64,000 bases of DNA from an uncultured Erysipelotrichaceae bacterium (GCA_902800645.1 CADCFC010000003.1:1598-65597), one strand, 5' to 3'. Positions 1,758 to 39,634 are shown, numbered from the stretch's first letter. Notes: generated from the letters alone by a model not told the origin. Made by a program: numbers and translations.

Positions 1758-2411
1758 TATATGAACAACATGAACTCACTAATGGATTTTTAGTTATTCG
1801 ATTAATAACCAAAAGATATATATTCCATCAGTGTGTTGTTTTGTCACTTATGCCTAAAAGTTTTGATTGTTAAGAATAATCAAATAGTTAAGATAAGTGA
1901 CTCTAAGGAGAGATATCTTTTATATTAAAGAGCAATGTGCACTCATGTTCTTTTATATTTATGATATATCTTCCTTATATAAGGATATTGATATTCTCTA
2001 TGTCTAACCACATCGACCACATGTGGTTATCCATATACATTATTTCTATATCCTTATACTAAAAGTATATTTATATATAATTGCTTTTTCAAAGACTATC
2101 TATAAGGGGTGCTATTTATAAATACATTGTATTTATAGATAAATAATTATTATTTAATAGTCTACTCACTACCAGATGTCTTTAAAGAACTGTAATTCCT
2201 ATTTTTTATTTACTACAAATTATTCCGACTATATCAATCTCAATTAGAGGTGTGTTGAGCTATATACTATATTATAATTAATATAGTGTGTTATTTGATG
2301 ATACACTTATAATAATGCAAAATTGAAAACTAAAGCAAAACTGATACGATTATATCAAAACTGCCTATATTCCAAATCATGAATGAGAACAGACCCACTA
2401 TGATCGCTAAT

Positions 2412-5400: not shown

Positions 5401-5432
5401 ATATGTAAAACTATTAATTTCATAAAAATCAC
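2412..5432 (-). CDS. Calcineurin-like metallophosphoesterase fused to a P-loop NTPase and a ~500-aa helical C-terminal region (STAND/Avs-like architecture)
   Basis: All five metallophosphoesterase motifs are present in order: HITDLH, FTGDAVQSG, CPGNHDR, LIMHIP, FTGHTHED. Walker A is IIKGDDESGKSVL (~aa 370) and Walker B is RILIIDDSDV (~aa 450); the rest is helical with no motif I recognise. The track start at 5432 is a GTG; the ATG at 5423 (MKLIVLHITDLH) is the more likely start. Confidence 0.75.
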   Translation of the reverse strand: MIFMKLIVLHITDLHLYRRLTFLDEKIDSIKNIVNNDDFSNNVLILFTGDAVQSGLKEDYEVFSNFINEIKAKIKKKIRIAICPGNHDRKFNEETIDSEYVKSIKDSNFDEKINELMYLNDNYNDFVNTNFESKSQINNVLLKFNFTYDNNKVSVYSLNNSLLSAYSSPEGDDAANIGNIYIAPDHLKIERENETLSFLIMHIPFSYLRKETKGKLSQIVSNNIDVVFTGHTHEDSIVANSAGYIELTAPALYSDGQSGFTLFHIDNNKMYYQLYLFNENDYVYEEINDNGINAIDFKRKEATKDKLRVNLKQVDQNNFVKFGHTSTDISNIFVFPNLTEKKYLNFEKKKITTFDKFVEAIKKKKIVIIKGDDESGKSVLANRLFHLFVSRGFNPLITSGNNFTKVSTNKSAKLLMSSIIKDNYNNQSAEQLYWNTEEKSRILIIDDSDVADFKRIMDSTTLFGNIILMSNSHVCDFFSNDEALNDNVLVLAIDVLYKAKRDEFLQLIYNTAAKIKPDILENFKKDTFITTFDKVIEKMDKMNSIDPKSILDLSTSMLFDVDVHNVDKNWSHQKTKYDSKLDLIEKDKSFANCGRFNSIRMLGDMAYDCYMKKHNSFSKDDFCDVYDREIALYDPPFDQKKIELYLSKLIDLDILKKNEDFSYSFINRKIFAYFISEYIVNCLHNKHSKIEIEVVLSRGLYSSLNSYILLNISNNYNYDDILDFFTNDLYNKISGAKLELKDFSSISKYFESERKRIELLDENRISEIKQDISKAEQIQRENYLEHSDDFFYEKDASETMKEMIDLLNKSQVVSNLLNSAPSKLTKGIKDKLTSIALTLPNIVVDKYITITNDDLEKMYVQMQREQSNNKKYSTKFISRFFDLLLSYVTATVLSIYDVGSRPLDNPMLNERLCERLRDDANPVKDIQRFMIMSFSARENQFIDSVINYIDNKNNTEFNKNCVRLIARRYCIENYDSLIENKKKYFIDKISNNNSIGVLLEHSKKKF

Positions 5433-5736
5433 CGCTTATTTAAAAATCTTTCATTAACATAATCAACCATTTATACATCTTTTGTCAATTCTATTGAGAT
5501 GGAATATGTATTTTTCAAAAACATAACTTTTATATGCCTGACTATCGTTTTTTTAACTGATAGTCTTAAATCTAACAATTCACTATTTTTTGACAATGAT
5601 ATGGATATATAAAAAGCTTTATTTTTCAGTTTTCGACACAAAATAGTGACGATGAATAATAAATATAACAATATTTTTATTCTCAATAATTAGTGTTATG
5701 GAAGGTCGAACATTGAATAAAATCTGGCTAAGGAAA

Positions 5737-5837
5737 CTATATAATCTCCCACTTATAGATATCTCGGCAAGTGTTTGTCTCCGCCAACTACTAACCACAT
5801 ACAATCTCTAAGACAAACACGAGGCATGTGTCGTTTT
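5737..5837. repeat. Island repeat, copy 1 (right-hand hairpin half; a degenerate left half may extend back to ~5590)
   Basis: About 85% identical by eye to 17342..17442: ctataWaatctcc...ttatagatatYYcggcaaGTGTTTGTCT-N30-AGACAAACACgag. The 10-bp stem is 5771..5780 / 5811..5820. Confidence 0.7.
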
Positions 5838-5898
5838 TTGCAAACGAAATATATGAATTGTCATTGTAAGTAATAATCAATTATTTTATGATTGATTT

Positions 5899-6882
5899 AT
5901 GGCAGATAAATTATTCTTAACAATCGATGAACAATTGAACCATTTATCATTAGATAAAGAGATTTCTTGTGGTGAAGCGCATAAAGAATCATTACTGAGA
6001 ATTGGTTATTTTAATTTGGTTAATGGTTATAAAACACCATTTACATCTAGTAAGGATGCTCAGGGTAATCATATATACGCTAAAGGGACAACATTAGATG
6101 AGCTGATTAATCTTAAAAACTTTGATGATGACTTGAGATATATTTTGATTAGAACATTAACCAAATGTGAAGAAGAAATAAAAACAATCGCTAGTTATAT
6201 ATTAGAAAAATATAAGCCAGCTAAAATAACTTGGAGAAGTACAAACGCATATAATAAGGCGCTAGATAAATCTAATATTGATAGAATTAATAAGCTTATA
6301 AGCAGAATGCAAAAGCAATTAAACGAAAGAGAAGATTTGGAATATGTAAAGTTTTATAAATCGTCTCATAAAGGAAAAATCCCTATGTGGGTAATTACAA
6401 AAGCAATATATTTTGGAACATTCATTGATTTAATAGAATTATCTAAACCAATAGTCGCAGAATCGCTTTGTGAATTATATAATATTAAAGACATAAACAA
6501 TGATAACGATATTAAATTATTAATTGGTTCACTACACTGGATAAGAATTTTTAGAAACGCCTGTGCACATAATGAAAGAATATATTGCTTAAAAGGTGCA
6601 GGTAGAATTTTTGATATAGAAATAAGAAAATTTGGAAACAGATATATGAGAATCAAAGAAAGAAAACTATTTGATCTTCTTGTCTATCTCCGTTACTACA
6701 TGCAGAAGAAAGAATATCAACAATTAATTAAAAACATCAAAGATAAATTAATAAAACTCCAGTCATCTATATCAGTGTACGCTTTTGATAACATAAGAGG
6801 TGGGATGGGTATTAAAAATTTAGAAGACTTAGATATATTATCTAAAGATGGATTTGATAACGGTTACATGAAATTATATTAA
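5899..6882 (+). CDS. Abi_2 family (AbiD/AbiF-like) abortive-infection protein
   Basis: Family landmarks: RIGYFNLVNGYK (the YYRLSxY-like segment), NLKNFDDDLRYIL, and the hallmark SLHWIRIFRNACAHNERIY (RNxxAHxxR motif). Confidence 0.8.
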   Translation: MADKLFLTIDEQLNHLSLDKEISCGEAHKESLLRIGYFNLVNGYKTPFTSSKDAQGNHIYAKGTTLDELINLKNFDDDLRYILIRTLTKCEEEIKTIASYILEKYKPAKITWRSTNAYNKALDKSNIDRINKLISRMQKQLNEREDLEYVKFYKSSHKGKIPMWVITKAIYFGTFIDLIELSKPIVAESLCELYNIKDINNDNDIKLLIGSLHWIRIFRNACAHNERIYCLKGAGRIFDIEIRKFGNRYMRIKERKLFDLLVYLRYYMQKKEYQQLIKNIKDKLIKLQSSISVYAFDNIRGGMGIKNLEDLDILSKDGFDNGYMKLY

Positions 6883-6960
6883 TTGTACGATTGTAGTTGA
6901 CAATAGGTATTAAATATTGATAGATTATTGATACAAGAGATATCCTTTATAGGATGAAAA

Positions 6961-6985
6961 GGTGCCGAGTAATCGACGCCTTTTT
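6961..6985 (+). terminator. Probable intrinsic terminator of the Abi_2 gene
   Basis: GGTGCCGA-GTAA-TCGACGCC (one mismatch, one wobble) followed by TTTTT, about 80 nt after the stop codon. Confidence 0.45.
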
Positions 6986-7020
6986 AATTTTAAATATTTA
7001 AATTAATGAGATGAACAACG

Positions 7021-7239
7021 CTATTTAAAAAGTTTTGGAGTTATATAAACAAAGAACGTAAAAAATAGTAATTGGTTATAATTCTTACTATTAGAGTGAA
7101 TAACATAAGTTGCTAATACTTTATGATTACCTTTAGTCAATATTCCTCTTTTTAATATTGTTAACCAGAAGATGTAGTCCTCATGACGGTTATATGTTTC
7201 ATCAAAATATAAATCACCTTTAACACTTCTAACATACAT
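7021..7239 (-). pseudogene. C-terminal stump of a family-2 glycosyltransferase
   Basis: DETYNRHEDYIFWLTILKRGILTKGNHKVLATYVIHSNS matches the post-catalytic EDYxxWL...Y(R/V)xxxxS segment of GT2 enzymes. The frame closes with TAA 13 codons upstream of the Met, and no catalytic N-terminal half is present. Confidence 0.55.
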
Positions 7240-7537
7240 AGTGGATAGGCAAGATAAAGGGTTACTCTTAATGAATGTTTATAGTTCGTTACCCATGGCA
7301 TTATAAAATACATGCACGAATTTCAGCTCGTCTTCTATAGCTTATGGAAATTAAAACTTCGTGTTCTATACTAAAAAACTAAGTCGAAAATCAAAATGGT
7401 ATTTTATTAATCGTATTATCGAGATCTTAAAATTTAATTTTTTTAAGAAGATTACATAAATCCTGGGTTTCTTGGGTTAGTGGTGCTATACTCACCGAAC
7501 GATTGTTCCTTCGTCAATCCTAAAAGAATAAATGCTT

Positions 7538-8785
7538 TTAAAATGAAAATGGATTTTTGATTGCACCCTTAGTAACAAACAACAATTCAAATTGTACAAT
7601 ATTGCCAGTCACCTCGAAGATATCATTAACAAAAAATAAACTTAGAAATATGCGATTGTTTTTCTCGTTTGTATAAATCAATTCCTTAACAGCAATGTTC
7701 AAGGTTTCTTTTTTAGTGTTTTCTATAACATAAAATGATAAGGTTGGGTCGTCGTTCATTTGTTCAATTCTTTTTATGGAGTTAATATCAATAATTATTT
7801 CGTTGTTCTTCAATATAGGCCTATTTCTAACAATGCTCATGAGGAATTGGTTGATTGAATTGTGGTTTCTAACAATATATTCTGGCTTTCTCAAAAGCCT
7901 ACCCAGCGCGCGTCTGATTCTTCTTTTATCGTACCAGTAGTTTAAATTTTTTCCATTAATCAAATTTAGTGACTCTTTAATTAAATCCTCACACACTTCT
8001 ATTCCAATCCTATCGTTCATTTCGAATTTAATAGATTTTTCAATCATCTCATAGACTGGTTCCAATTCAATATTGTCACTTGTATAAGATTTAATCTCAA
8101 AATCATAATCAATCCTTTCAATGCCGTCGTTGAATGAATAGTAACTTTTTTTCAATAAGGCATATACTGTTTTTGCAAAAGAATATACATCACTTGCATA
8201 ATATTTGTCGGTGTCTATGATTGTTCTGTCCATGAGTTCTGGTGGAGTAAAAGTATATGAACCCATCCTTGAATGGTTTGTTTCTCCACCCTCTTCACTA
8301 ATCAGTCCAAAATCACACAAAATCAAAACGTACCCATCACCATTATCTTTCTTCTCAAATAAAATATTTGTTGGTTTAATATCGCGATGAGCAAATCCTT
8401 GCGAGTGTATATATTTGATTGCGTCAATTAAGTCTAAACAGTATTGAAGAATAGTCTTATTCGTTGGATTTGAAGCATAAAAATCATTGATCGTTAAATA
8501 TTTTTTCATAACAAAAAATTCAGGACCATTCTTATAAGAGTCAATAAGTTTAGGAATATGAATGTCTTTATTTTGATGTTTCTTTAAAAAATCTATTTCT
8601 TTGTTAAATCTCTCTAATCTGATTGCTCTATCGGTTCTAATTTCGGCTACATTAAAAACCTTCGCGACAATCTCGTTGTTACATGCAACAGATCTAATAA
8701 CGCCATTCCCGCCTTTGGGGTCGTTTTCATTTTTTACAATTTTATATGATTGAATGTATCCGTTTAATATTTCTGAATTATTCAT
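7538..8785 (-). CDS. Hanks-type Ser/Thr protein kinase with an unassigned ~150-aa C-terminal domain
   Basis: G-loop KGGNGVIRSV, catalytic Lys in EIVAKVF, HRDIKPTNILF, CDFGL, TFTPPEL. The start is set at ATG 8785..8783, which overlaps the TAA (8780..8778) of the upstream ORF (ATGAATAA). The track's longer start at 8842 lies inside the upstream gene. Confidence 0.8.
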   Translation of the reverse strand: MNNSEILNGYIQSYKIVKNENDPKGGNGVIRSVACNNEIVAKVFNVAEIRTDRAIRLERFNKEIDFLKKHQNKDIHIPKLIDSYKNGPEFFVMKKYLTINDFYASNPTNKTILQYCLDLIDAIKYIHSQGFAHRDIKPTNILFEKKDNGDGYVLILCDFGLISEEGGETNHSRMGSYTFTPPELMDRTIIDTDKYYASDVYSFAKTVYALLKKSYYSFNDGIERIDYDFEIKSYTSDNIELEPVYEMIEKSIKFEMNDRIGIEVCEDLIKESLNLINGKNLNYWYDKRRIRRALGRLLRKPEYIVRNHNSINQFLMSIVRNRPILKNNEIIIDINSIKRIEQMNDDPTLSFYVIENTKKETLNIAVKELIYTNEKNNRIFLSLFFVNDIFEVTGNIVQFELLFVTKGAIKNPFSF

Positions 8786-11700
8786 TTTCTGCAAAACGTC
8801 TTTCTGATTCTGCATCATGATAAAAACAATCCGCGACATCATTTAAAATCAAGGCGCTTTTTGGAAAGCCTGTTTGTTTTAGCAAGCGTGACTCGCTCTT
8901 ATAATAATTGGCTTTAACAATAAGATCCGACCCATCGCCAATAGTCCTGACTCCAACACCATTCATTATCGAGGTACAATAACTCGATTTTAAATAATTA
9001 TAAGCCTTGTCATTTTGAATGTTTTCAATGAAATCGGCAACCTCTTTAGGAATTAGTAACCCCTCTTCTTTTTTTGAGTAAGCAAAAAGTTTCCCAAGGG
9101 ATGAATAAAATAGATAATCTTTTTCATCGAAGTCTGTTTTATAAATCAATTCACGATACTGATTAACCCATTGTTTAAATAAATTGCCATCAAAAACACC
9201 ATGATAATATCCAGGACAAAATTTTAAATCAAAATATAATAATCCAAACAGTGTTGCTTTTCTTTTAGAATCCTCTTCCTTCTTGATATAAACACTTTCA
9301 ATAAATTCAAAGTATGTCTCAGGGTGTTTACCTAAATGATTGTATAAACAAATCGGTTCGCACTCATGCGTTTTAATAGCCATGATTTCCAGAGAAGCAA
9401 TTTGAAGTTCAATTGTCTCGTTGTTTGTAGAGGAAAATCTTTCATGAAGGATGTCTAACAAAAGTGGAAGATACATTAAGTGACTAGATGAAATTGCACC
9501 TGGCTCTGCTTTTGTCAAGCATTCAAGTACAACATCGCCCAAATCGCTCCCTTTATAATTGTGAGCAAAAAAGTAAAGTGCTTCCAAAATTGGGCTTTTT
9601 AAAGAATTATCTCTTTTAAAAGCATCGTTTAAGCTTTCAATAGCAAATGTAATCGATTTAGGGTTGGAGCAATCAATATTCACATAACTTTTAAAATTTG
9701 ACCAATACAAATCTTGAACGCATCGCGGGAGGACCTGATACATACTAGCAAATTCATCATCATTAAGATTAAAAGGAACAACATACAAATACTCTAAAAG
9801 AGCTGATTCATTATTGGTGGCTTGTACTTGTTTTAAAATTGAATAGTAATTTTTCTTATCGTTGTAAAACAAATCTCTACCTAGATAAGAGAACAAAGCG
9901 CTAACATTAGGTGTCTTAGCTAATAAAACTTCAACAAATTGATTAAGACTTCTATTATTAACAGTCATTTCGAAATCTTTTGCAAAATAATAAAATCTGT
10001 CAAAAACATTCACTTTACCAGCATTTTCGTTAAAATGTTGATACAAATAATCTATCGAGAGTCTGTCTTTTTTAAATTTGGCATACACCGTTTCTAAGAA
10101 TTGTTCATTATTTTTTTCTTGAAGCGCATATGAATAATTATTGCTATCATAAACGACAGGATTCGGGTTTTTAATTTCAAAGGATGTAAAATAATCTATA
10201 TATTCGATTTCAGGATTATCCAATTTAATTTTTGGAATTAACAACTCAAAGTCCTTGATAACTTCTTCAGGCGCAGCCCACCCTGCATTAGCAAATTCTC
10301 TATTCTTATGTATAAATGATTTAATTCTATTTATAACAATCATTTTATCGTAATCATTAGCTTCCTTACATACAGACATTATCTTTTTAATAACCATTTC
10401 TCTTGCTTTATTGCCGAAATATACAAAAGAGTGTTTGTCTATAATCTCAGCAATCTGAGTGCAATTATTTGCATGCTCCAAAACAATATCATTGTAGAAA
10501 CTATACCTTTCAGAAATAACTTTGTTTGTTAGTTGTTGCTCTGGCATTTTAAATGTCAAATAGACTGGATGATTAAACGGCATCGCCGTATCTCCACCAC
10601 CCGAATATAAAAGATCTATGAACAAATTAAACGCCGCATTTGAATCAATTTTAAAAAGATGCCTGCAAAGTTCAGTTCTTTCTTCTTCTGTAGCAGGGGT
10701 TGCTTGAAACCACGCCAAGAAAAAAACATGTAAAGTAGACTTAGGCGAATTTGAAATCTGGTAGGAGAGATTAAGTTGATATAAAGAAAAGAGTGCTTCA
10801 ACGGCTTTTTTTCTTTCGCTATCGAAAAAGAGGATCTTTTCCAAACACCACAGAACATTTGTGTACCAATTTTTTCCAAATATAAAATCAGGTTTGGAAG
10901 ATTTGTTTAAAAATAGTTTGCATAGCCCTGACTTGTTTTTTATATCAGATGATATTTTGTCTATAGTTAAAGAAGCATTAATTTCAACAATCTTATCTAA
11001 ATAATCAGAAAGATACCTATAATGTTGATCTGTTTGATTCTCATCGATCCATTTAAAAAAAGTGTCAACAAGATTGGCTGTTTGATTTTTAAACTTTCCT
11101 TTTTCGTTCAAAAAGATTAACGAAATAAAAATGCTCTCGATAAGAGAAGGAGAATAAGAACTTTCGCTGTTTTTAAAGACTAAAGGACTATCTCCGTATT
11201 TATCCGGAAGTGTACATAAAACATTTTTTGCCAATTCAAAAAACTTATCTGCAATAGAAGATGAAATATCAGAATAAAATGATTCGAATGAGCCTTCATA
11301 ATCAAGAACGATGAGATTTGTTTGGTGAAAGTCTACTATTTCCTTTGCGTATGGAGTTTCCGATAAAGATGGCGGTTGTATCTCCTCAATATAATCACTA
11401 ATTCCAAGGCCACTTATCTTTTCGATAAAATCCGCATCAAGAGGATTATTAACTTGGAACTTTCTTATTAGTAAAGAAGTTGATAAAACACGGGACTTAA
11501 TTGACGACTTAATTCTCGCTTCAAATGTATCGGTTTCTTTGCATAGTATTCTGTAGAGATTTGGAAAAGTATTTTTTGATCTCCTCATCAAAGATGAAAT
11601 ATCATCACTCTTAAAATCACTCTTCTTCAATGCTTCTCTTGTTGATTTTGCAAGTCTAGGCCTCAAAGTGATTTGAACACCAGATACTTTCCATTTAGAG

Positions 11701-12482
11701 ACAATATGAATGTTCATATATTGTCTAAATGCAGGGATAGATTCATCGGTAAAAAATTCATTAATCAGAATAGAATTATTAGGCAAAGAATAATGCTGAA
11801 CATTTAAATAATCTGCTCGGCTATTAAAAATGAAAACTCTTGAATTATAATCATCAGGAAAAATCTTTTTAAGCTCGCATAACGTTGCATAAAGGGTTTC
11901 TAATTGATAAGTCCCTTTGATAAGCAGTGGATTATTAGGACCTCTAAGCGATTCACTTAATTCACCGGAAAAATGTGCATCCTGAAAATCAAATAAATCT
12001 AGAGTAAGTGGCTTATTTTTGTTGTCCCTTGAAGAACAAGAAAGATAGTTATTTAATTCATCAATGGTAAAGTAATTTAGATTATAATAATAGGACGATT
12101 TTAATTCTTCTAGTTCCTTATCAAGTTTTTGCTTATCTAGTTTTAGTTCTTCAATGCTGGAATGCATTAAATCCTGTTGAATCAAAACATATAATAATGG
12201 TTGACTAGCTTTAATTTTATCAAGCAATGAGGATAAAAAGGAATTAATATCACTGTCCAAATATCCCTTATTGATAAGTAATTCCTTTATTGCCTTCACC
12301 ACTTTAACAAGGCTTTGTCTATAAGTATATTTAGCGACATCTAAGACGGCATCATAATCTATGTTCTGATTTTCTTTTTGTGCAAGAATATAATAGCCTT
12401 CCCAAGACGCCTTGCTAGCAAACAATTCAATAGCTTTGTATAAAACTTTTATAATAGAGGGCGCCGCATCAATAAATTTCAT
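8778..12482 (-). CDS. 1234-aa predicted all-helical protein of unknown function, translationally coupled to the kinase
   Basis: Long uninterrupted ORF with a coiled-coil-like segment SSIEELKLDKQKLDKELEELK. I found no intact Walker A, TM or nuclease motif. Residues ~185-225 resemble a decayed P-loop core (PLLIKGTYQLETLYATL ... SRVFIFNS). Its stop overlaps the kinase start. Confidence 0.7.
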   Translation of the reverse strand: MKFIDAAPSIIKVLYKAIELFASKASWEGYYILAQKENQNIDYDAVLDVAKYTYRQSLVKVVKAIKELLINKGYLDSDINSFLSSLLDKIKASQPLLYVLIQQDLMHSSIEELKLDKQKLDKELEELKSSYYYNLNYFTIDELNNYLSCSSRDNKNKPLTLDLFDFQDAHFSGELSESLRGPNNPLLIKGTYQLETLYATLCELKKIFPDDYNSRVFIFNSRADYLNVQHYSLPNNSILINEFFTDESIPAFRQYMNIHIVSKWKVSGVQITLRPRLAKSTREALKKSDFKSDDISSLMRRSKNTFPNLYRILCKETDTFEARIKSSIKSRVLSTSLLIRKFQVNNPLDADFIEKISGLGISDYIEEIQPPSLSETPYAKEIVDFHQTNLIVLDYEGSFESFYSDISSSIADKFFELAKNVLCTLPDKYGDSPLVFKNSESSYSPSLIESIFISLIFLNEKGKFKNQTANLVDTFFKWIDENQTDQHYRYLSDYLDKIVEINASLTIDKISSDIKNKSGLCKLFLNKSSKPDFIFGKNWYTNVLWCLEKILFFDSERKKAVEALFSLYQLNLSYQISNSPKSTLHVFFLAWFQATPATEEERTELCRHLFKIDSNAAFNLFIDLLYSGGGDTAMPFNHPVYLTFKMPEQQLTNKVISERYSFYNDIVLEHANNCTQIAEIIDKHSFVYFGNKAREMVIKKIMSVCKEANDYDKMIVINRIKSFIHKNREFANAGWAAPEEVIKDFELLIPKIKLDNPEIEYIDYFTSFEIKNPNPVVYDSNNYSYALQEKNNEQFLETVYAKFKKDRLSIDYLYQHFNENAGKVNVFDRFYYFAKDFEMTVNNRSLNQFVEVLLAKTPNVSALFSYLGRDLFYNDKKNYYSILKQVQATNNESALLEYLYVVPFNLNDDEFASMYQVLPRCVQDLYWSNFKSYVNIDCSNPKSITFAIESLNDAFKRDNSLKSPILEALYFFAHNYKGSDLGDVVLECLTKAEPGAISSSHLMYLPLLLDILHERFSSTNNETIELQIASLEIMAIKTHECEPICLYNHLGKHPETYFEFIESVYIKKEEDSKRKATLFGLLYFDLKFCPGYYHGVFDGNLFKQWVNQYRELIYKTDFDEKDYLFYSSLGKLFAYSKKEEGLLIPKEVADFIENIQNDKAYNYLKSSYCTSIMNGVGVRTIGDGSDLIVKANYYKSESRLLKQTGFPKSALILNDVADCFYHDAESERRFAENE

Positions 12483-12499
12483 GTTAATTACCTAGTTTG

Positions 12500-12508
12500 A
12501 TTATATCA
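12500..12508 (-). promoter_or_regulatory. Possible extended -10 element (TGATATAAT) for the giant-protein/kinase operon
   Basis: The minus strand reads tTGATATAATcaaactAGGTaattaacATG. This would give a very short leader, and the -35 is poor. Confidence 0.3.
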
Positions 12509-12808
12509 AAATATCGTGGATGTATAAATATATCAAAATTAGGGAAAACTATATATAGAAATGATAATTGGAATTTTAAAGACTACTTTTAACCTTAAAA
12601 AACATAAAAGATTCATTTTATTGTATAAGTCATTATTATCACTTTACTTATTTTTTTATATAGCAAAAATCCATCTTACTTTTATCACAGATATACATTC
12701 ATCATATTTATTTATAGGTAAATTGACATCAACTTTGAAAGAATATCAAACTTAAAACGATATTTGTCCCCTTAAAGAAATAAAATCGAAAGACAAATGT
12801 ATTATGAA

Positions 12809-12847
12809 TCCTAAGTCTAGCGCGTCTGCAAGTTCCGCCACGCAAGC
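12809..12847 (-). pseudogene. Orphan 5' half of a tRNA-Leu(UAG)-like gene (acceptor strand, D-arm, 5' anticodon stem and loop only)
   Basis: Minus strand: GCTTGCG-TG-GCG-GAACTTGCAGA-CGC-G-CTAGA-CTTAGGA. This is colinear with the intact tRNA-Leu at 39550..39634 (GCGGATA-TG-GTG-GAATTGGTAGA-CAC-G-CAAGA-CTTAGAA). After the anticodon loop the sequence (TTCAT...) no longer pairs, and there is no variable arm, T-arm or CCA. Confidence 0.55.
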
Positions 12848-13011
12848 AAGATATTAAACGCGCAAACCTAATACCTTTCTAATTTATATCTTGAAAGATA
12901 AAATTAGCAAATGTTTTCTATAATTATATATAAAATATTGTTATAAAAAAACTCGGGTATCTAATCCCAAGTCGTTTATTCAACAATAAAATACAAGGAT
13001 ATAAATAAGCA

Positions 13012-13188
13012 CTAAAAATTAACAAACTTGCTCAACTCATCAATTGTGATTTGTTCTTCTTTATTATTGGTCGCACTTAAAACAACTGTGCCACTTTTTG
13101 TATATGTTAATTTAACGTACTTAGCGTTATTAGTTTTTTCTTCTTCTGCAGCACTTGGATTACTCAAAAGTTTGTCGATCTCGGACAT
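13012..13188 (-). CDS. 58-aa small hydrophilic protein, third gene of the AbiH-like operon
   Basis: Below the track's size cutoff. AGGAGTAAAAAA-ATG lies 24 nt after the stop of the 2-TM gene. Hand translation: MSEIDKLLSNPSAAEEEKTNNAKYVKLTYTKSGTVVLSATNNKEEQITIDELSKFVNF*. Confidence 0.45.
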   Translation of the reverse strand: MSEIDKLLSNPSAAEEEKTNNAKYVKLTYTKSGTVVLSATNNKEEQITIDELSKFVNF

Positions 13189-13212
13189 TTTTTTACTCCT
13201 AGAAATATAATA

Positions 13213-14061
13213 TCATTTCTTGTAATGTTCGCATAGCATTAATAGGCTTGGATAAGAAACATTACCTTCTTTTTTATAAATATCATAATAGAACAACTTA
13301 ACAACTTCTATAATGATATCTTTGAATTGAGCGTCCACCAATTCTCTGTCTAATAAATTGTTCATATATTGAATGGCCAAGCTCTCAAAGAAATTCAAAA
13401 CCTTTATTCTTCTTTCATGATAAATCCTTAACACTTGGGAACAACCAATCGTGTTTTTGTCTAATTTATATCCTTTTTCACCATTATAAACTTTGCTGAT
13501 GTGTTCAGAAAAACTATTACTCACAACATTAGGTTCAATAGTTAAAAACAAAATAGTCTTTTTAATTAAAAGGTTTTGATATTCATCTTCGTTTTCAAAT
13601 TCAGATTCAAACTTTTTAATTGCTTCTTCTTGAATCTCTAATGATGGCTCAACTTTTAATCTCGCCTTTTTAAGCGAACCCCTAACTTCAACTTGAACAT
13701 TTTTTGTGAAGCGATAAAGAGGGGTTGTACTGTAGTTAAATTCTTTGATTGCTTCAATAACTGCACCAAGCTTAGTTTCTTTCTCCTTCGCTCTTCGAGA
13801 ACGTTCATTAAATAAATACGTTCCAACCGCATTTAATAAAATACCGGCAGAAAATAGAGATCCAGCAATACCAATTGCAATCGTATGTAGTTCCTTTGTG
13901 TTAAAGTTCTTATTTTCTAGGAAAAAGAAAATCAATAAAACAACAATTGCAATAACACCAATAACGAGAAATGCTCCAACAAACACATAGAAAACAATTG
14001 TTGGAATCTTAATCTCGCGTTTATTTGTATCATAATTCTTTTTGTTATCTTTCATATACAT
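13213..14061 (-). CDS. Two-TM membrane protein with a cytoplasmic C-terminal domain (DUF4760-like by eye)
   Basis: Two hydrophobic helices: IPTIVFYVFVGAFLVIGVIAIVVLLIFFFL and TIAIGIAGSLFSAGILLNAVGTYLF. The C-terminal LNFFESLAIQYMNNLLDRELVDAQF...YPSLLMLCEHY resembles my memory of DUF4760-type proteins. It lies 43 nt downstream of the AbiH-like gene. Confidence 0.6.
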   Translation of the reverse strand: MYMKDNKKNYDTNKREIKIPTIVFYVFVGAFLVIGVIAIVVLLIFFFLENKNFNTKELHTIAIGIAGSLFSAGILLNAVGTYLFNERSRRAKEKETKLGAVIEAIKEFNYSTTPLYRFTKNVQVEVRGSLKKARLKVEPSLEIQEEAIKKFESEFENEDEYQNLLIKKTILFLTIEPNVVSNSFSEHISKVYNGEKGYKLDKNTIGCSQVLRIYHERRIKVLNFFESLAIQYMNNLLDRELVDAQFKDIIIEVVKLFYYDIYKKEGNVSYPSLLMLCEHYKK

Positions 14062-14104
14062 TATTATCTTATAACTTTATTCTACTGTCTATGTTAAATG
14101 GGGA

Positions 14105-15271
14105 TTAAATTTTTCTAATTTGTAGCCTGTTTTCCAATTGTAATCTGCTGATAATTGTAGTGACTTTTTCTTCACTTCCTGATTTTTTAGCGTAGTCGGT
14201 CAGTAATTTATAGACAGAAGAAACAAAAGCTGCTCTAATATTGGCGTTTTCTTCTTCGGTTTCTTTGTATTCTGTATAGCAAAATATAAGCGATATACCA
14301 CTATTGTAAATGTCATAATAATCAAACAACGAATGAAAATAAGAATAGTCCTGTGGGCCAAGAGAATGACCATAAATTTTGATTTTATTAATATTTTCTT
14401 TTTTAGGCAATTCATACGGCTTGTCGGATAGATTCATTTTTTGCCATGCTTTGCTCATTTTAATGCTCAAAGTTTCGTTGTCAGAAACATCACCTGAATC
14501 AAACCCAATAATAATTTCATTTTCTAAACTTCCGTGTATATTGTAATAATTTCTTTTGAATTCATGACTTTCCGAATCAACAAACCATTTCAATGGATTT
14601 GTGTAATTGAATGAAATAATTGAAGTTGGCTCAGAATAAAAGTTAATTAATTTGCTTAGCAGTTTTTTACAATTGTTGGTGTATTCAGTATCACTGACAA
14701 CACAATTACTAATATACTCCTTAAAATCGGCTTCAAACTTTAATAGTTCTAAATACAAATATGAGTATATATTAAAACCAGATACTTCTATTTTTATTTT
14801 ACGGAAATGTTTTTTGATTGAAACTAATTGACTACGTTCCCCAACAATGTATCCTGACATTCTTGTAGAAAACAAGGAATTCAAATAATCTAAGTAATTT
14901 GAGCAATTGATAGGGAGGTTTATATTCATCCATTTATCATCTTTTTTATTAAATGTAACAATCTTTTTAACGAAACTTTCAATATCCATCCAACGCGGAT
15001 TACTAATAGGAATTTTTTCAACAATTTGATTAAACTCGCTATCATAATAAGTTTCGTCGTAAAAAGCAAAATAAAACAACAAATACCAAATATTATCGCA
15101 CACAACGTTTAAATAAGTGTCAGCAGCGGATTTAATAGTTGAAATTTTTGTTTTAAAAAAATCATTAAAACTACTTTTAAGGCCACAGTTTAAATCAAAA
15201 CCATTGCCGATAACCAATAATGTTCCAATTATTTCATTTTCGCTTGGGCTAATTCTATTTTTTGTATTCAT
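14105..15271 (-). CDS. AbiH-like abortive-infection protein
   Basis: The N-terminal LLVIGNGFDLNCGLKSSFNDFF matches the AbiH signature (IIGNGFDLxHGLxTxYxDF). The C-terminal IKIYGHSLGPQDYSYFHSLF matches the second AbiH block (GHSLxxxDxxYF). Confidence 0.75.
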   Translation of the reverse strand: MNTKNRISPSENEIIGTLLVIGNGFDLNCGLKSSFNDFFKTKISTIKSAADTYLNVVCDNIWYLLFYFAFYDETYYDSEFNQIVEKIPISNPRWMDIESFVKKIVTFNKKDDKWMNINLPINCSNYLDYLNSLFSTRMSGYIVGERSQLVSIKKHFRKIKIEVSGFNIYSYLYLELLKFEADFKEYISNCVVSDTEYTNNCKKLLSKLINFYSEPTSIISFNYTNPLKWFVDSESHEFKRNYYNIHGSLENEIIIGFDSGDVSDNETLSIKMSKAWQKMNLSDKPYELPKKENINKIKIYGHSLGPQDYSYFHSLFDYYDIYNSGISLIFCYTEYKETEEENANIRAAFVSSVYKLLTDYAKKSGSEEKVTTIISRLQLENRLQIRKI

Positions 15272-15790
15272 TTCGTCATCATTATATATTACATGGCACT
15301 AGAATCATATTAATCTTAGTCATAAGATGGGCAAATTTATCAGTCCTCTAAAGTTTTTCATTACACAAAACAAAACTTAATAGTGCTAAATTATTTTTGA
15401 TTTAGTGGCATTCTTTTTCTTTGATTCTATCAGGCATAAGTATTTTATCTTTCTTGTATTTCTCTTATAAAAATTAAAGCATAACGAGTCACCCATTAAT
15501 AAATATTTAGGGACGACATTAATGTTATTTTTTAGAACTACGTAAAATAAGTCTTTCGTTTTCTTTTGCCATAAAACGCCCATCCAATTACATAGAATCA
15601 ACTTCTAATCCAATTTGTTCCTTGGGTTTTATGATAAATGTAATGCATATATCTAATTAGTTTTAATTTGTTTCTAGACTTACTGTTTTCTAATATACAA
15701 TTGATGTCATATCCGTATCTTTAAAGCAATTCCGACCGAAACAAATATTATTATTTTTTTCTTCAATTGATTTATAAATATATAGGAAAA

Positions 15791-15947
15791 AATAGATTCA
15801 TAATTGATAAGAATCAGCCATATAAATATAACATCGCCATCATCATTCTTGGTGAACTATTTAATGAAGGAATAATAGATATTTTTGATATAGCGGAATC
15901 TCTTATTAAATTAACAAAACTATATAATCTCCCAGTAATAGATATTT
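15791..15947. repeat. Island repeat, copy 2 (left-hand 157 nt only)
   Basis: Colinear without indels with 17213..17369 (about 85% identity by eye): aatagattcataattgataaRaatcagccatat...gatatttttgatatag...ctcttattaaatt... It diverges just before the hairpin half. Confidence 0.7.
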
Positions 15948-16208
15948 ATAAAAAAGAAAGTAATTCCACTACTTCAAAGCGGTTGCCATGGAAGGAACTT
16001 CCTGGGTAATTGCGCCTCCAAAAACGTTTAGCAAAATTTCTCATACATTAAAATAAAAAACAATAATTCTTTCATGGCAATCTAGTCATCTCCTTTCCTC
16101 TACTACCATCAAAAAATCCAACATAAAAATGTAGGTATTACCAAAAGCATTAATTTTTGATTTTTTATTCAGTAACGAAAAATAGTTTCCGACTGTAATA
16201 ATACAAAG

Positions 16209-17132
16209 CTAATCCTTTGACAAAATAAATGATTTGTTTGTTTTCTTTACTATAAAATTATTTGTCTTCTCACAGCAAACAAATCCGTCACTCCCAAAAG
16301 AAATTAGTTGAAATTTCATTTCTAGTTTTGGCTGTACCATGAAAAAATTTTGAAATGCAATAATTATATTAGGAATATTATCAACAAGAAATTTTTCCCA
16401 TTTAGCTGCCTCCTGACGATAAATGATTGATTTCAATGTTGAATCAATAGGGTTGCCGTTTGACATTGAACCACCACCAGCGTTAGTTAAAACCAAGCCA
16501 TTATCAAGAACGGCAAAACCATTGATATTACATTCTCTCAGGGCCTTTATGTCATTATTAGAAAGTTCTTTAGAAGCAACGCCATTAACAATAAATGGGC
16601 TTAATAAGTTTGGCCAATTCCGATATATTATTTCCAAATAATCCTTGTCCGTAAAGCAATGAATATCATTATGATCTTTTACGGTAATGAAATATACAAA
16701 ATAATCTGTAACCCATGCGATAATCAAATGGTTGCTTCTTTGAACTCTGCCATCAGTCCTATATCTCCTGGACAAATGAAAATGGAATAAATTCCAATCA
16801 TTCAGGATACCATCGTTGTAAGTAACGTCATCATACTTTTCAGTTAAAAAGGGTTTTAAATTGTCTCCGTTAATTATTTTTATTTCAAGTTCACTCAATG
16901 CCAGCTCATATCCAGACGGACAGACAAATGAATCAGACTTTTTAACTTGTCTAGGCATTGGTTTTATTGTTTTCTTCATCATCTTAAACATTTCAATAGG
17001 TGCATTTCGATTTACTGTTGGTGAAAACCCATTATTAACAATATTGCTTTTAGCAATTTTTTCACAATCTTTTTCGAAATCAATTTCAGCAATCCATAAA
17101 TATTTTTCAGGAATTTTGGCTTTGTAAATCAT
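16209..17132 (-). CDS. Hypothetical 307-aa protein (orphan cassette between two repeat copies)
   Basis: Clean ORF with no motif I can assign. It contains WNLFHFHLSRRYRTDGRVQRSNHLIIAWV. It is flanked by repeat copy 3 upstream and copy 2 downstream. Confidence 0.55.
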   Translation of the reverse strand: MIYKAKIPEKYLWIAEIDFEKDCEKIAKSNIVNNGFSPTVNRNAPIEMFKMMKKTIKPMPRQVKKSDSFVCPSGYELALSELEIKIINGDNLKPFLTEKYDDVTYNDGILNDWNLFHFHLSRRYRTDGRVQRSNHLIIAWVTDYFVYFITVKDHNDIHCFTDKDYLEIIYRNWPNLLSPFIVNGVASKELSNNDIKALRECNINGFAVLDNGLVLTNAGGGSMSNGNPIDSTLKSIIYRQEAAKWEKFLVDNIPNIIIAFQNFFMVQPKLEMKFQLISFGSDGFVCCEKTNNFIVKKTNKSFILSKD

Positions 17133-17212
17133 GAGTTAATTATAGGATAAATAAACTTGCAATATATCTTTTTTGATAAACTTATAGATATATGAGAAAG
17201 CAAAGAGAGATG

Positions 17213-17442
17213 AATAGATTCATAATTGATAAAAATCAGCCATATGGATATAACATCGCCATCATTATTTTTGGTAAACTACGTAATGAAGTAATGATAG
17301 ATATTTTTGATATAGTAAAAGCTCTTATTAAATTTAGGATACTATAAAATCTCCAAGTTATAGATATTCCGGCAAGTGTTTGTCTACGCCAACTACTAGC
17401 CATGAACAACCTCTAGGACAAACACGAGCCATATATCATTTT
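17213..17442. repeat. Island repeat, copy 3 (full length, ~230 nt)
   Basis: The left half matches copy 2 and the right half matches copy 1. The stem is GTGTTTGTC (17376..17384) / GACAAACAC (17417..17425) with a ~32-nt loop. Confidence 0.7.
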
Positions 17443-17553
17443 AGAATCCAACTGACATCCTAACGAATTCTAATGAATCCAAAGAATAAAATGCTTAACA
17501 TTAATCTCTTGATAACAAATAAATTATTATGGAGAGCATTACTCGACAATGTT

Positions 17554-19809
17554 TTAAAGACTATCTACTCTATCTTTGAATGATTTAATATCTCTCAACG
17601 AAATAGAAAGATATGGGGAAATCATCATTGTTGTAGCATGATCGATTGCGTTATACATGACTGAAAAATCATTATGAATTTGTTGGCATCTCTCAACAAA
17701 TGCATTTAATCCATGAACAGGTGTAGATTTATTTAACGAAGAAATAGAACTAATAATCGATTGGAGTCCACACGCTTTTTTCATTTTTACATCCATTATG
17801 CTTGAGGAAAAACAAGAATAACCTTTATCCACCACTTTTTTCTCAAACTCAAATTTGATAGTTTCAATCATTAATGCCTTTAAGAAGATATAGTTTATAA
17901 CATCAGAATATTTGTTGCTTCTAAACGAATTAAAAGGTCTTTTTGCAACATTCTCCCTAAATGTTACCATTAATCTAGAATCTCCATTGTAAGCTGATGG
18001 CACATTTTTATTACTATCGTGTGTCCTTACATAAAGCTGAGCCAAAGATGCTATTGTCAAAGTGCTTGTTCTATCCATATTTTTTCCCGCAAAATAATTA
18101 TTTGAACGATAATGTTCAAAACACGAAACAATCTTATCTTTAACATCATTACTCCAACCTACATCAATTTTTCCTGTTTTCGTTACAATTTCTAGATATT
18201 TCAACTTCTTAATTGTTTCTGTGTTTATGTTTCTTAGCGGAAGCGACATCGCGCAAAACATTAAATCAGGATCATAAGGGTACGTTGTCTTTTTGGTGGT
18301 AATAAAATCAACAAGAAAATACAAATCGTTTTTTCCAATCTTTTTTACCTCTTTGCTTGTGCATTTTTGATGCCAGTAATTATATGAGGAATCATTATAA
18401 ACATAATCTGGATCGTCTAAATAAAAGATGGCATCACATTTTTGAATCTCTGAGAGGTTATAAACGCATTCAAAATCATTAGTAAGCATATACCAATTAT
18501 GCAAACGCCTAAGTTTTAAAATCTTTTTTATATATTTAATGGCTAATAACTTAGTGTAATCATCATAGCTATCTATCGGATCATCAAGAATTAAAACGTC
18601 TGTGTCAGAAAAATATATTTCTGCGTAAAGCGTAACTAAAACCAATCTCTTAAATTCGCTTGTAGACAAGAATTCTTTGGCAGATTGTTTTTTGTTGTTG
18701 ATTTTAAAAACAAAGCCTTTCTTTCCATCAAGAGGTAAAATTTTAATATCATCATCAAGATGAATAATAGATCTAATCTCATTTATTACAAACAAATTAA
18801 AATTATTAATTTTTTTCAAATCTTTATTAGTTGTTCCATCTATTTCACCGATTTTGCTTTCAAGTTTATTTATTTTATCTAAACAACCAAAAATAGTGTC
18901 ATCTTCTTCTGGAATATTAATTTCTCCAATTTTATTAGACATCAAATATACATTGTCCATACATAATTGTATGTATAGCTTAAGAGCGATAAATAATTTT
19001 CTTTTATTGTTATTTGATTCTATACTATCAAATATTTTCTTAATTATTGGATTATCAGTTTTTTCCTTGAATAGAATCAGCCTTTTAACAAGGCTGTTCA
19101 TTTCTCTAACAGCGTTTTCATTTTTTATTATTTTTAATTGAGAATAGTGATTTTCAATATGTCTTATCAAAGAATTATAGTTTCTATACCTTTTTCCACA
19201 TAAAAGACATGTCTTAAAATGATTTAACTTTGAATAAAGTAGTATTGAAAAAACACTATCTTTAATCTCTTGATCTACATATAAATCATCTAGTTCGTCT
19301 TTCTCGATTTTGTCATAAGCATCATATCTATCAATAAACGATTTAATATCTAAATAAAGAGGATAATCTAAAGAAACATCCATATTTTCAATCGCACTAT
19401 CATCATAGTCTGCATATTTTTCCCTGATCCGACTTACATTCTTTTTAATGAGTTTAGGTTTATCACTTGCTTTGGTAACGTGATAAAACATTAAAACAAA
19501 ACTATTTTTAACAGCGGCCGTTAATGATTTTACCCCTAGCCCATTAACAAATGGTTTTGCTTTTTCGATTGACTCTTCGATGTGCTTCTTTTTTGTTTGC
19601 ATCTTCGCTGTTGAGCCAAGAAAAAATTCATCATCAAATTCATCAATTAAATCTTCAAGACTTTTGTTAGTAAATAATTTTACTTTTTTCCCATCTTTTC
19701 TTAGTTCATCTGCCATTTTAACGGAATTTGTAGTTTTTCCAAATCCATTAGGGGCATATATGATTGTTTTATTCCATTCTGTGAGAAAAGAGTTGCTATA
19801 TGGGTACAT
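17554..19809 (-). CDS. AAA_13-type ABC/SMC-like ATPase with a coiled-coil insert and CxxC, plus a ~340-aa C-terminal domain (RloC/PrrC-like architecture)
   Basis: Walker A is IIYAPNGFGKTT. A long helical insert contains CLLCGKRY. There is an ABC-signature-like LSTSEFKRLVLVTL, then Walker B/D-loop DVLILDDPIDSYDD. The C-terminal third is unassigned. Confidence 0.65.
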   Translation of the reverse strand: MYPYSNSFLTEWNKTIIYAPNGFGKTTNSVKMADELRKDGKKVKLFTNKSLEDLIDEFDDEFFLGSTAKMQTKKKHIEESIEKAKPFVNGLGVKSLTAAVKNSFVLMFYHVTKASDKPKLIKKNVSRIREKYADYDDSAIENMDVSLDYPLYLDIKSFIDRYDAYDKIEKDELDDLYVDQEIKDSVFSILLYSKLNHFKTCLLCGKRYRNYNSLIRHIENHYSQLKIIKNENAVREMNSLVKRLILFKEKTDNPIIKKIFDSIESNNNKRKLFIALKLYIQLCMDNVYLMSNKIGEINIPEEDDTIFGCLDKINKLESKIGEIDGTTNKDLKKINNFNLFVINEIRSIIHLDDDIKILPLDGKKGFVFKINNKKQSAKEFLSTSEFKRLVLVTLYAEIYFSDTDVLILDDPIDSYDDYTKLLAIKYIKKILKLRRLHNWYMLTNDFECVYNLSEIQKCDAIFYLDDPDYVYNDSSYNYWHQKCTSKEVKKIGKNDLYFLVDFITTKKTTYPYDPDLMFCAMSLPLRNINTETIKKLKYLEIVTKTGKIDVGWSNDVKDKIVSCFEHYRSNNYFAGKNMDRTSTLTIASLAQLYVRTHDSNKNVPSAYNGDSRLMVTFRENVAKRPFNSFRSNKYSDVINYIFLKALMIETIKFEFEKKVVDKGYSCFSSSIMDVKMKKACGLQSIISSISSLNKSTPVHGLNAFVERCQQIHNDFSVMYNAIDHATTMMISPYLSISLRDIKSFKDRVDSL

Positions 19810-39549: not shown

Positions 39550-39634
39550 TGGTGCGGATAACAAGAATCGAACTTGCACGAGTTTCCTCACAAGATTCTA
39601 AGTCTTGCGTGTCTACCAATTCCACCATATCCGC
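39550..39634 (-). tRNA. tRNA-Leu (anticodon UAG), type II with long variable arm, CCA encoded
   Basis: GCGGATA-TG-GTG-GAATTGGTAGA-CAC-G-CAAGA-CTTAGAA-TCTTG-TGAGGAAACTCGT-GCAAG-TTCGATT-CTTGT-TATCCGC-A-CCA. Confidence 0.9.

Follow-up and report, generated by a model that had tools for sequence, protein, structure and literature searches.

Repeat copies at module boundaries of an Erysipelotrichaceae defence island, probable scars of a serine-recombinase-associated cassette family

Introduction

The assembly of defence islands is well understood for integrons, staphylococcal cassette chromosome (SCC) elements and phage or satellite hotspots, and poorly for the uncultured small-genome Bacillota of the gut and rumen. 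A stretch of 64,000 nt from an uncultured Erysipelotrichaceae bacterium (GCA_902800645.1 CADCFC010000003.1:1598-65597; hereafter the window) contains an island with genes for a Metallophos-STAND protein, AbiD, a Ser/Thr kinase together with a 1234-aa protein, AbiH and PD-T4-7, followed to the right by glycosyltransferase genes. Three copies of a hairpin-bearing repeat stand between these modules, and the question raised by this locus is what the repeat is and why it recurs at module boundaries. An earlier reading based on the sequence alone (the sequence-only reading) had described it as a single element of ~230 nt and had offered recombination seams, a shared promoter, a decayed small gene or a structured RNA as possible roles. 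The explanation favoured here, which is considered probable though well short of certain, is that the repeat represents the conserved backbone of a cassette family associated with a large serine recombinase (LSR), that hairpin units form the seams between cassettes and that the copies in the window are inert scars.

A composite of two separable modules

A repeat search of the window aligned positions 15791-15946 with 17213-17368 (87% identity over 156 nt) and 5731-5837 with 17336-17442 (84% over 107 nt), all on the + strand, in agreement with the three same-orientation, roughly 85% identical copies seen initially. The location of the copies between defence modules was likewise borne out, with the Metallophos-STAND, AbiD, kinase, AbiH and PD-T4-7 genes around them. 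A search of the whole source assembly (1,306,068 bases in 60 contigs) found the repeat in exactly these three places.

The copies are real, but the unity attributed to them is not: two modules that can be separated, a small gene and a hairpin unit of ~85 nt, are joined in the repeat. The view of a single element had missed this division, the LSR partner of the small gene and the occurrence of the unit after genes unrelated to defence. The 33-nt overlap between the two apparent halves of the repeat corresponds to codons ~46-60 of the small open reading frame (ORF). Outside the AbiD block described below, the small ORF and the hairpin unit are all that the island of the window shares with the islands of its relatives, and the genes flanking the repeat copies vary among genomes, yet are defence genes.

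The small gene and its recombinase partner

In G027, a genome of another genus, a full-length copy of the repeat (82% identical) lies between unrelated defence genes and contains, in the + frame, an intact ATG-started ORF of 78 codons. When the peptide was searched in six frames against 301 genomes of the family, ~30 matches were obtained in 23 of them, mostly as uninterrupted frames of ~71 codons and often several per island on one strand. The databases hold 36 close proteins (cluster P0001 of the window and 35 relatives), nameless and without a Pfam domain, with a conserved consensus of 69 aa, MGKQREKNRFVIDKNQPYEYNIAIIILGELCNEGIIDIFDMAEALIKLRKLYNLPVIDIYGKKESNSSN. According to a profile search over 1.84 billion representatives the family comprises only 52 clusters, all of them short stand-alone proteins, the members of which are 33-96% identical with a constant length of 66-69 aa. 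The ratio of nonsynonymous to synonymous substitution rates (dN/dS) had a median of 0.13 (range 0.03-0.35) over 62 informative pairs, and was 0.23 for the left copy of the window against G027 or G205. These values evidence purifying selection, contrary to the initial impression that substitutions between copies are not codon-biased. The suggestion of a decayed small gene proved apt for the left two-thirds of the repeat, which, judging from the G027 frame, the protein family and dN/dS, is a protein-coding gene under purifying selection.

AlphaFold2 predicted a two-helix hairpin for the small protein with a predicted local distance difference test score (pLDDT) of 82. A fold search of this model against the PDB returned no neighbour below E=2, and no family model of Pfam or NCBIfam matched the protein. 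A phage origin was considered and set aside, as no relative occurs in IMG/VR and matches to PHROGs were insignificant. A conserved block, TTGAT.AACTTATAGA.ATATG, precedes the small ORF and was also found in G027 and at locus L071. A divergent cargo gene begins close to the start of the small ORF in nearly all loci, at a distance of ~45-370 nt and commonly of ~60 nt. In locus L075 (a contig of GCA_020047475.1), an IS66-family element (427-2770; TnpB_IS66 and DDE_Tnp_IS66) ~270 nt upstream of a small-ORF copy occupies the usual place of the divergent cargo gene.

In G205, G064 and G163 the small ORF overlaps, by its last codons, the beginning of a gene of ~555 codons that has the same orientation and encodes an LSR. 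An LSR was recognized by an N-terminal Resolvase domain with its Ser motif, followed by Recombinase and zinc-ribbon domains, in a protein of ~450-700 aa; this combination was seen in the relatives only. The proteins of loci L045, L051 and L055 carry Resolvase, Recombinase and Zn_ribbon_recom domains (for the 561-aa protein of L045, PF00239 at 1e-27, PF07508 at 2e-11 and PF13408 at 1e-7, with similar matches in the other two), the motif YVRVST is present, and their resemblance to the NCBIfam models XisF, CcrB and CcrC is sub-threshold. In all intact modules the stop codon of the small ORF overlaps the LSR start, suggesting translational coupling.

Broken LSR copies are present at loci L012 and L046, and the genomes G027 and G205 carry broken copies. 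The metagenome contig L071 has an entire small ORF and exactly 37 codons of the LSR (...RVCAYVRVST), after which the hairpin unit begins with ATTCTCGGCGA-GTGTTTGTC... and the remaining LSR is absent. Intact small ORFs with no LSR downstream were found as well (P0021 on 8 contigs; also G225, G259 and G265), and many of the LSR-less copies are nearly identical across genera. In the source genome, within the limits of its 90% complete assembly, no LSR homologue was detected among the proteins and no match to PF07508. Taken together, these comparisons show that an LSR is the natural partner of the small protein and that it has been lost from the source genome.

The hairpin unit

The stem reported for the right half of the repeat was recovered as GTGTTTGTC-N32-GACAAACAC, with 9-bp arms, at 17376-17425 and 5771-5820. 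The whole unit, of ~85 nt, has the layout TCGGCGAGTGTTT...AAACACGAGCCA..ATCGTTTT, with a conserved core TCGGCGAGTGTT(T) ... (A)AACACGAGCCA ... AT(C)GTTT and a centre that differs among copies both in sequence and in length (14-34 nt). Database members that contain the unit read it in different frames and with ragged ends; it is therefore conserved as nucleic acid.

A first survey used a pattern that demanded the arms and was hence biased to invariant arms and fixed spacing; a covariance model was then built from nine sites and scanned over 401 related genomes, where it located ~30 units in 17. The notion of the unit as an LSR attachment (att) site of fixed geometry and ~50 bp was abandoned: the N30-33 spacing had come from the pattern, and the loops given by the model measure 14-34 nt. 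Each unit-bearing genome has 1-4 units, all within variable polysaccharide or defence regions, and same-strand arrays occur in G067 and G122 (three units each) and in G006, G001, G243 and G142 (two to four). The downstream neighbour is a convergent gene for 28 of 31 units, the stop codon lying -11 to +107 nt away in 21 of these, and the three exceptions are the one AbiD cassette. The genes preceding units include those for an epimerase, a sugar transferase, a nucleotidyl-transferase, a surface repeat protein and a KAP NTPase; the unit is not confined to defence genes. No conserved upstream ORF was found for units that lack the small gene. The interiors of the units diverge far more than their arms.

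A short variant of 62 nt, with a loop of ~14 nt and a GUGUUGC/GCAAUGC stem, was observed at locus L114 (G142:C1; 8917-8978 and 9730-9791) and also in G080 and G287; in G142 it is duplicated together with 188 nt of left flank, each duplicate abutting the stop codon of another gene. Genes for tRNA also occur near units: at locus L109 (G067:C4) an intact tRNA-Leu(UAG) gene (7729-7813, - strand) lies 50 nt from the first unit (7863-7947, + strand) of a three-unit array, and a tRNA-like gene is found near the units of G006:C6 (L110 12497-12583).

Several features of the unit are strand-specific. The + strand of the two window units folds better than its shuffles (z-scores of -2.8 and -1.6), the - strand does not (-1.4 and +0.6). 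A conserved tandem GA/GA stands beside the stem on the same strand, a T-run follows most copies 8-9 nt past the stem base, and on the + strand the loops are rich in C and poor in G and T (C 28% vs 17% in the background, T 22% vs 35%). In the helix 96.8% of the alignment cells pair and one-sided changes to G-U account for 20 cells; double-sided changes number only 2, a level matched by 55 of 500 shuffles in an alignment that was itself fitted to the model. The earlier suggestion of a structured RNA is possible for this unit, while the covariation sought in its favour is not significant. Rfam gave no match at E<=1 over positions 5000-18000 on both strands, the abiF motif and group II intron domains included. 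A scan for Rho-independent terminators, defined by a G+C-rich stem, a loop of 3-8 nt and a T-run 0-2 nt from the stem, made no call at 5755-5842 or 17360-17447, where the loop (14-34 nt in the family) and the distance of the T-run depart from these values; a non-canonical terminator is possible. Consensus scans for promoters and terminators performed no better than shuffles and were uninformative on the shared promoter or leader proposed at the outset, which stays a conjecture.

Seams and the AbiD cassette

At the left edge of the unit, TCGGCGAG, at least six different breakpoints join within a few bases, namely codons ~38, ~44 and ~60 of the small ORF and codons ~10-16, ~28 and 37 of the LSR. 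Pairwise comparison of unit loci revealed at least eight pairs with only the unit in common, and at least five independent pairs that share the left flank and the unit and diverge 4-16 nt before its right end, as do the two units of G142, located 813 nt apart. A mosaic in G243 matches G122 through the whole unit and then G006 from the right edge into the adjacent gene; a crossover inside the unit loop, proposed from a BLAST coordinate, was discarded when a three-way alignment placed the switch at the right edge. In G013 a 5'-truncated acetyltransferase gene abuts the unit. Based on these alignments, both unit edges are exchange seams between blocks.

In the window such a block is represented by the AbiD cassette. 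It is 93.1% identical over 1262 nt to a segment of G320 and 92.3% identical over 1254 nt to one of G122, both of other genera, with nothing in common beyond either end and a right boundary located just after AAAAGGTGCCGAGTAATCGACGCCTTTTT. These identities indicate that the cassette is horizontally shared among three genera.

A strain comparison, which by its nature finds near-identical strains only, retrieved 11 contigs for each of the identical PD-T4-7 and AbiD proteins, from several rumen metagenome samples, and gene order and spacing were constant in all of them. The recombination seams proposed at the outset are consequently upheld across genomes, by the breakpoints at both unit edges and by the AbiD block, and not as a current process in this lineage, in which a single arrangement was seen.

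The three copies of the window

The features of the three copies are collected in Table 1. In the full copy, the conserved 5' region lies inside the 60-nt gap facing the divergent PD-T4-7-like gene. Its small ORF has a second in-frame stop, TAG at 17414-17416, and carries about twice the nonsynonymous load of intact copies (Nd 14-20 vs 3-8). The left copy had been taken for a half of the repeat; it actually comprises the whole small ORF, up to the canonical C-terminal tail ...PVIDIYKKESNS, and runs on into ~20 degenerate recombinase codons. The ATG and first codons of this small ORF are gone and a 12-nt deletion has occurred in it; its dN/dS is ~0.2 against G027, G205 and L078. Against the small-ORF/LSR junction of G205, BLASTN homology extends to 15968, 24 nt into the LSR, and the weak colinearity with LSR codons ~10-18 read by eye beyond this point suggests that the remnant continues. 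The right copy, which was thought to reach possibly to ~5590, shows homology with G320, where the gene is intact, only from 5729.

Table 1. Coordinates of the repeat copies and associated features in the window
Feature	Position	Strand	Evidence and details
Conserved 5' region, full copy	17154..17191	+	BLASTN homology from 17154 (G205) and 17170 (G027)
Small-ORF pseudogene, full copy	17192..17347	+	ATG at 17192, 51 codons, in-frame TAA 17345-17347 (TAT in G027)
Hairpin unit, copy 1	17360..17447	+	Arms 17376-17384 and 17417-17425; joined at small-ORF codon ~60; covariance model R1 93.9 bits, E 7e-24; fold -20.8 kcal/mol, z -2.8
Left copy	15767..16009	+	80-codon open frame, TTG start; hidden Markov model (HMM) match E 1e-38
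LSR 5' remnant, ~20 degenerate codons, start codon lost	15946..16005	+	BLASTN and by-eye colinearity
Right copy, small-ORF tail (last ~15-25 codons)	5729..5808	+	HMM positions 46-67; G320 homology from 5729
Hairpin unit, copy 2	5755..5842	+	Arms 5771-5779 and 5812-5820; model R1 86.8 bits, E 8e-22
AbiD cassette	5729..6990	+	Small-ORF tail, unit, abiD (5899-6882), intrinsic terminator (~6957-6985)
PD-T4-7-like defence gene	16209..17132	-	PADLOC PD-T4-7, E 6e-32; 307 aa

The PD-T4-7-like gene, which has no Pfam match, lies between two repeat copies, divergent from the full copy and convergent with the left one. It is the cargo of one module, and the same divergent geometry of cargo gene and small ORF recurs in nearly all loci.

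Past the LSR remnant of the left copy, another small hairpin, TTGCCATGGAAG-GAA-CTTCCTGGGTAA, was noticed at 15966-16000 (+ strand). Within the same region, 36 nt (15974-16009) are 94% identical to the tail of the small-ORF locus of G013 (L054 9532-9567), and several database members read this DNA in other frames.

Favoured explanation and its alternatives

According to the favoured explanation, a cassette family would circulate among uncultured rumen and gut Bacillota, in variable polysaccharide or defence regions. In the relatives an intact module consists of one or more cargo genes on one strand, a short divergent control region and the 66-69-aa gene overlapping the LSR gene of ~555 codons, and the hairpin unit, an imperfect palindrome, would mark the joints between cassettes, so that the DNA to its left and to its right could be exchanged independently. 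In the window the LSR genes have been lost, leaving three relics of joined modules: on the left the whole small gene with ~20 LSR codons, in the full copy a small-gene pseudogene fused to a unit, and on the right a small-gene tail and unit that arrived with the AbiD cassette. The copies would lie at module boundaries because each module was joined there. It seems reasonable to assume that the LSR, with or without the small protein, assembled such islands, and that the unit acted in cis as a DNA site, probably in a folded single-stranded form. Since the source genome shows no recombinase and the order is the same on the 11 contigs, the copies are best read as inert scars; recombination at them has presumably ceased, and they may still supply promoter or termination signals.

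Several observations weigh against this explanation. Its main weakness concerns the link between unit and LSR, as in no case did enzyme and site occur side by side in intact form: those loci whose LSR is intact (G205, G163 and, up to the contig end, G064) have no hairpin unit, and 10 of the 17 unit-bearing genomes have no LSR Recombinase domain at all. LSR att sites have a fixed geometry of ~40-50 bp, which a loop varying from ~14 to ~34 nt does not fit. There is no strain-level polymorphism among the 11 contigs per protein, and the other end of the AbiD block is an ordinary terminator. The seams themselves could come from homologous exchange within the conserved arms of 25-30 nt, or could reflect selection under which a functional RNA or terminator is retained as useless DNA is lost.

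The last of these leads to the strongest alternative, in which the unit works as RNA: a + sense transcript, started in the divergent control region or at the promoter of the small ORF, would serve as a small regulatory RNA, or as a terminator or insulator that keeps antisense transcription out of the convergent gene, and boundaries would coincide with units only through selection keeping the unit; a discrete RNA of this kind would end at ...ATCGUUUU. The stability of the + strand fold, above that of its shuffles and not seen on the - strand, agrees with this, as do the variation, almost wholly one-sided to G-U and thus pairing only in a + sense RNA, the tandem GA/GA, the T-run, the loop composition, the position of nearly all units opposite a convergent 3' end and the ordinary terminator closing the AbiD cassette. 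Conversely, the covariation is not significant, the arms are conserved as sequence beyond mere pairing, and neither Rfam nor the terminator scan recognized the unit. An RNA role alone also leaves the six or more independent breakpoints at one unit edge, and the truncated genes abutting it, unexplained. The strand-asymmetric features fit a folded single strand, be it DNA or RNA, and the fixed unit edges joined to variable partners, together with the truncated genes beside units, speak for a role in DNA. On balance, a cis-acting DNA joint can be given slightly less than an even chance, ahead of the RNA, which remains a tentative alternative.

A different proposal turns on the small protein, which could be a stand-alone regulator of the divergent cargo gene, with the repeat as a promoter-regulator module and the LSR linkage as secondary. 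The constant proximity of the small ORF to a divergent gene, the purifying selection and the persistence of intact copies with no LSR would be expected in this case. The LSR-less copies, however, are often near-identical between genera, suggesting recent spread, and their intactness need not mean function; the protein is predicted to consist of a two-helix hairpin and nothing more, and matches no DNA-binding fold, the overlap with the LSR start suggests translational coupling with the recombinase, and two of the three window copies are broken. This proposal is regarded as improbable.

Still less credit is given to the unit being a selfish miniature element, of the type of miniature inverted-repeat transposable elements (MITE), repetitive extragenic palindromes (REP) or palindrome-associated transposable elements (PATE), mobilised in trans by, for instance, IS200/IS605 Y1 transposases and devoid of any role in exchange. 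Such an origin would account for a palindrome with sharp edges on both sides and for the many pairs with only the unit in common; genes for Y1 transposases are present in 11 of the 17 unit-bearing genomes, with three copies in the source genome, and strand-specific transposition could yield the uniform orientation. It is countered by the low copy number and confinement of the units to variable polysaccharide or defence regions, by six unit-bearing genomes with no Y1 match, by interiors far more diverged than arms, unlike those of recently transposed MITEs, and by the IS605 copies, which have no unit motif inside or at their shared ends, the model finding no further copy in the genome. An origin from an IS200/IS605 PATE was specifically rejected, given that the element ends are unrelated to the unit and that the source genome has just two units, both in the island. 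The IS200/IS605-type elements of the source genome, all outside the window, are three in number and ~91-94% identical (C43:4418-4783, C17:27215-27580 and C2:548-910); each encodes a 135-aa Y1 TnpA followed by a TnpB-like ORF, in a sequence unrelated to the hairpin unit.

It is very unlikely that the hairpin serves the Abi_2 (AbiD/AbiF) gene downstream of the right copy as a noncoding RNA (ncRNA) antitoxin or as its leader. Abi_2 genes with upstream ncRNA antitoxins are known, such as AbiF/Abi_2 RCd22 (bioRxiv 10.1101/2025.04.15.648962), and similarly a structured element lies upstream of and co-oriented with the 327-aa Abi_2 gene, at 57 nt, in the window, G320 and G122. These three cases are one cassette (92-93% identical), though; the other 28 units are located behind unrelated genes with no Abi_2 gene nearby, and no Rfam abiF-motif match was obtained at E<=1. 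The last idea, that the right-half and left-half copies are the attL and attR of a 10-kb circle with the crossover in their 33-nt overlap and the full copy attP-like, imitates the order expected of a circular permutation with a shared core and can practically be dismissed, given that the left copy is a complete type-A gene and the overlap merely codons 46-60, that the right copy sits in a 1.26-kb cassette with its own history and that no recombinase lies within the 10-kb interval.

Other features of the island

Two further elements of the island deserve mention. At 12808-12848 (- strand) the window contains an isolated 5' half of a gene resembling that for tRNA-Leu(UAG); the acceptor strand, the D-arm and the anticodon stem-loop are there, and the break comes behind the anticodon loop. 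Over 41 nt this half is 95% identical to the 5' half of the intact tRNA-Leu(UAG) of G067, and closer to it than to the tRNA-Leu of the window itself (39550-39634); it may be what remains of an integration or rearrangement junction. At the left edge of the island, at ~2177-2340 (+ strand), lies a second conserved intergenic element of ~190 nt, which is 75-83% identical to sequences in G027, G225 and, twice, G013, and has no Rfam match. It comprises a pair of direct repeats, TCCGACTrTrwCAATCC, and, at its centre, a palindrome, ACTATATTAT.AATAATATAGT.

Implications

As the copies in the window are scars, their annotation as a functional repeat system is unwarranted. The wider interest lies in two undescribed markers, a small orphan gene linked to an LSR and a conserved hairpin unit, that show the joints of exchangeable blocks in at least seven genera; both are usable now as bait for cassette boundaries and new cargo genes in metagenomes; small serine recombinases have served as bait in a comparable approach (PMC13552941). 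If the unit were the site of a serine recombinase, these enzymes, a family in wide use for engineering genomes, would have a substrate of a new class.

Comparison with known systems

Small accessory proteins or directionality factors of LSRs include XisH and XisI with XisF, SprB with SprA, and Orf7 of TP901-1. The small protein described here may be likened to them in being encoded beside an LSR, with which it is probably translationally coupled; it differs in its lack of sequence or fold similarity to anything solved and of a family model, and in its persistence in the absence of an LSR. With regard to AbiF/Abi_2 RCd22, the likeness extends to the one cassette mentioned above, the unit being mostly away from Abi_2 genes.

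Composite islands of the SCC type, SCCmec among them, are mobilised by Ccr LSRs, as are defence cassettes that stand in tandem between att sites of one strand (Hossain et al., bioRxiv 10.1101/2023.03.17.533233), and the comparison can be extended to the Enterococcus cassette chromosome (PMC6222049). Shared with this family are the tandem cassettes rich in anti-phage genes, the same-strand repeated sites, the presence of cassettes with no recombinase of their own and the class of the enzyme. The layout is seen in the unit arrays of G067, G122, G006, G001, G243 and G142 and, in the window, in two units and three small-ORF relics. In contrast, the LSR of the relatives scores 96-98 bits against CcrB and 54-77 against CcrC, where the NCBIfam cut-off is 900 for both; a single LSR behind a 66-69-aa orphan gene replaces the ccrAB pair, a hairpin of ~85 nt with a variable centre takes the place of the short direct-repeat att core, and the location is a polysaccharide locus, in a system recognized so far from its sequence.

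Integron attC cassettes, including the sedentary chromosomal integrons that store defence genes (bioRxiv 10.1101/2024.07.02.601686), resemble the unit arrays in their same orientation and in the imperfect palindrome placed just past the stop codon of the cassette gene, sometimes overlapping it, a position taken here by the 21 units close to a convergent stop. Conserved stem boxes, unpaired positions and a central part of changing sequence and length are also common to both, the recombinase gene is divergent from the cargo as in integrons, and the strand asymmetry hints at a folded single strand. The enzyme associated with the units is, however, a serine recombinase and not the IntI tyrosine recombinase; it was the sole recombinase seen beside unit arrays, where no dedicated IntI search was made. 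Instead of RYYYAAC...GTTRRRY, the unit has arms of the type GTGTTT...AAACAC, that is GAGTGTTT ... AAACACGAG, with the opposite polarity (GTT first, AAC second). Furthermore, the unit and the gene that it follows lie on opposite strands, 110-530 nt of spacer ahead of the next gene leave room for a promoter of each cassette, the hosts belong to the phylum Bacillota, and the unit itself is known only as sequence.

It can be speculated, with low probability, that the small protein, the LSR and the hairpin unit form an integron-like system of cassette acquisition and exchange built on a serine recombinase. Folded single-stranded hairpins with conserved stems, unpaired GA/GA and a variable centre would mark the cassette ends, and the system would stock defence and surface-polysaccharide genes. 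As far as these comparisons go, the SCC family is the closest mechanistic analogue and the integron attC array the closest in layout, the islands belonging to neither. The finding concerns recombinase-associated cassette islands, which are of a known kind, with two undescribed components.

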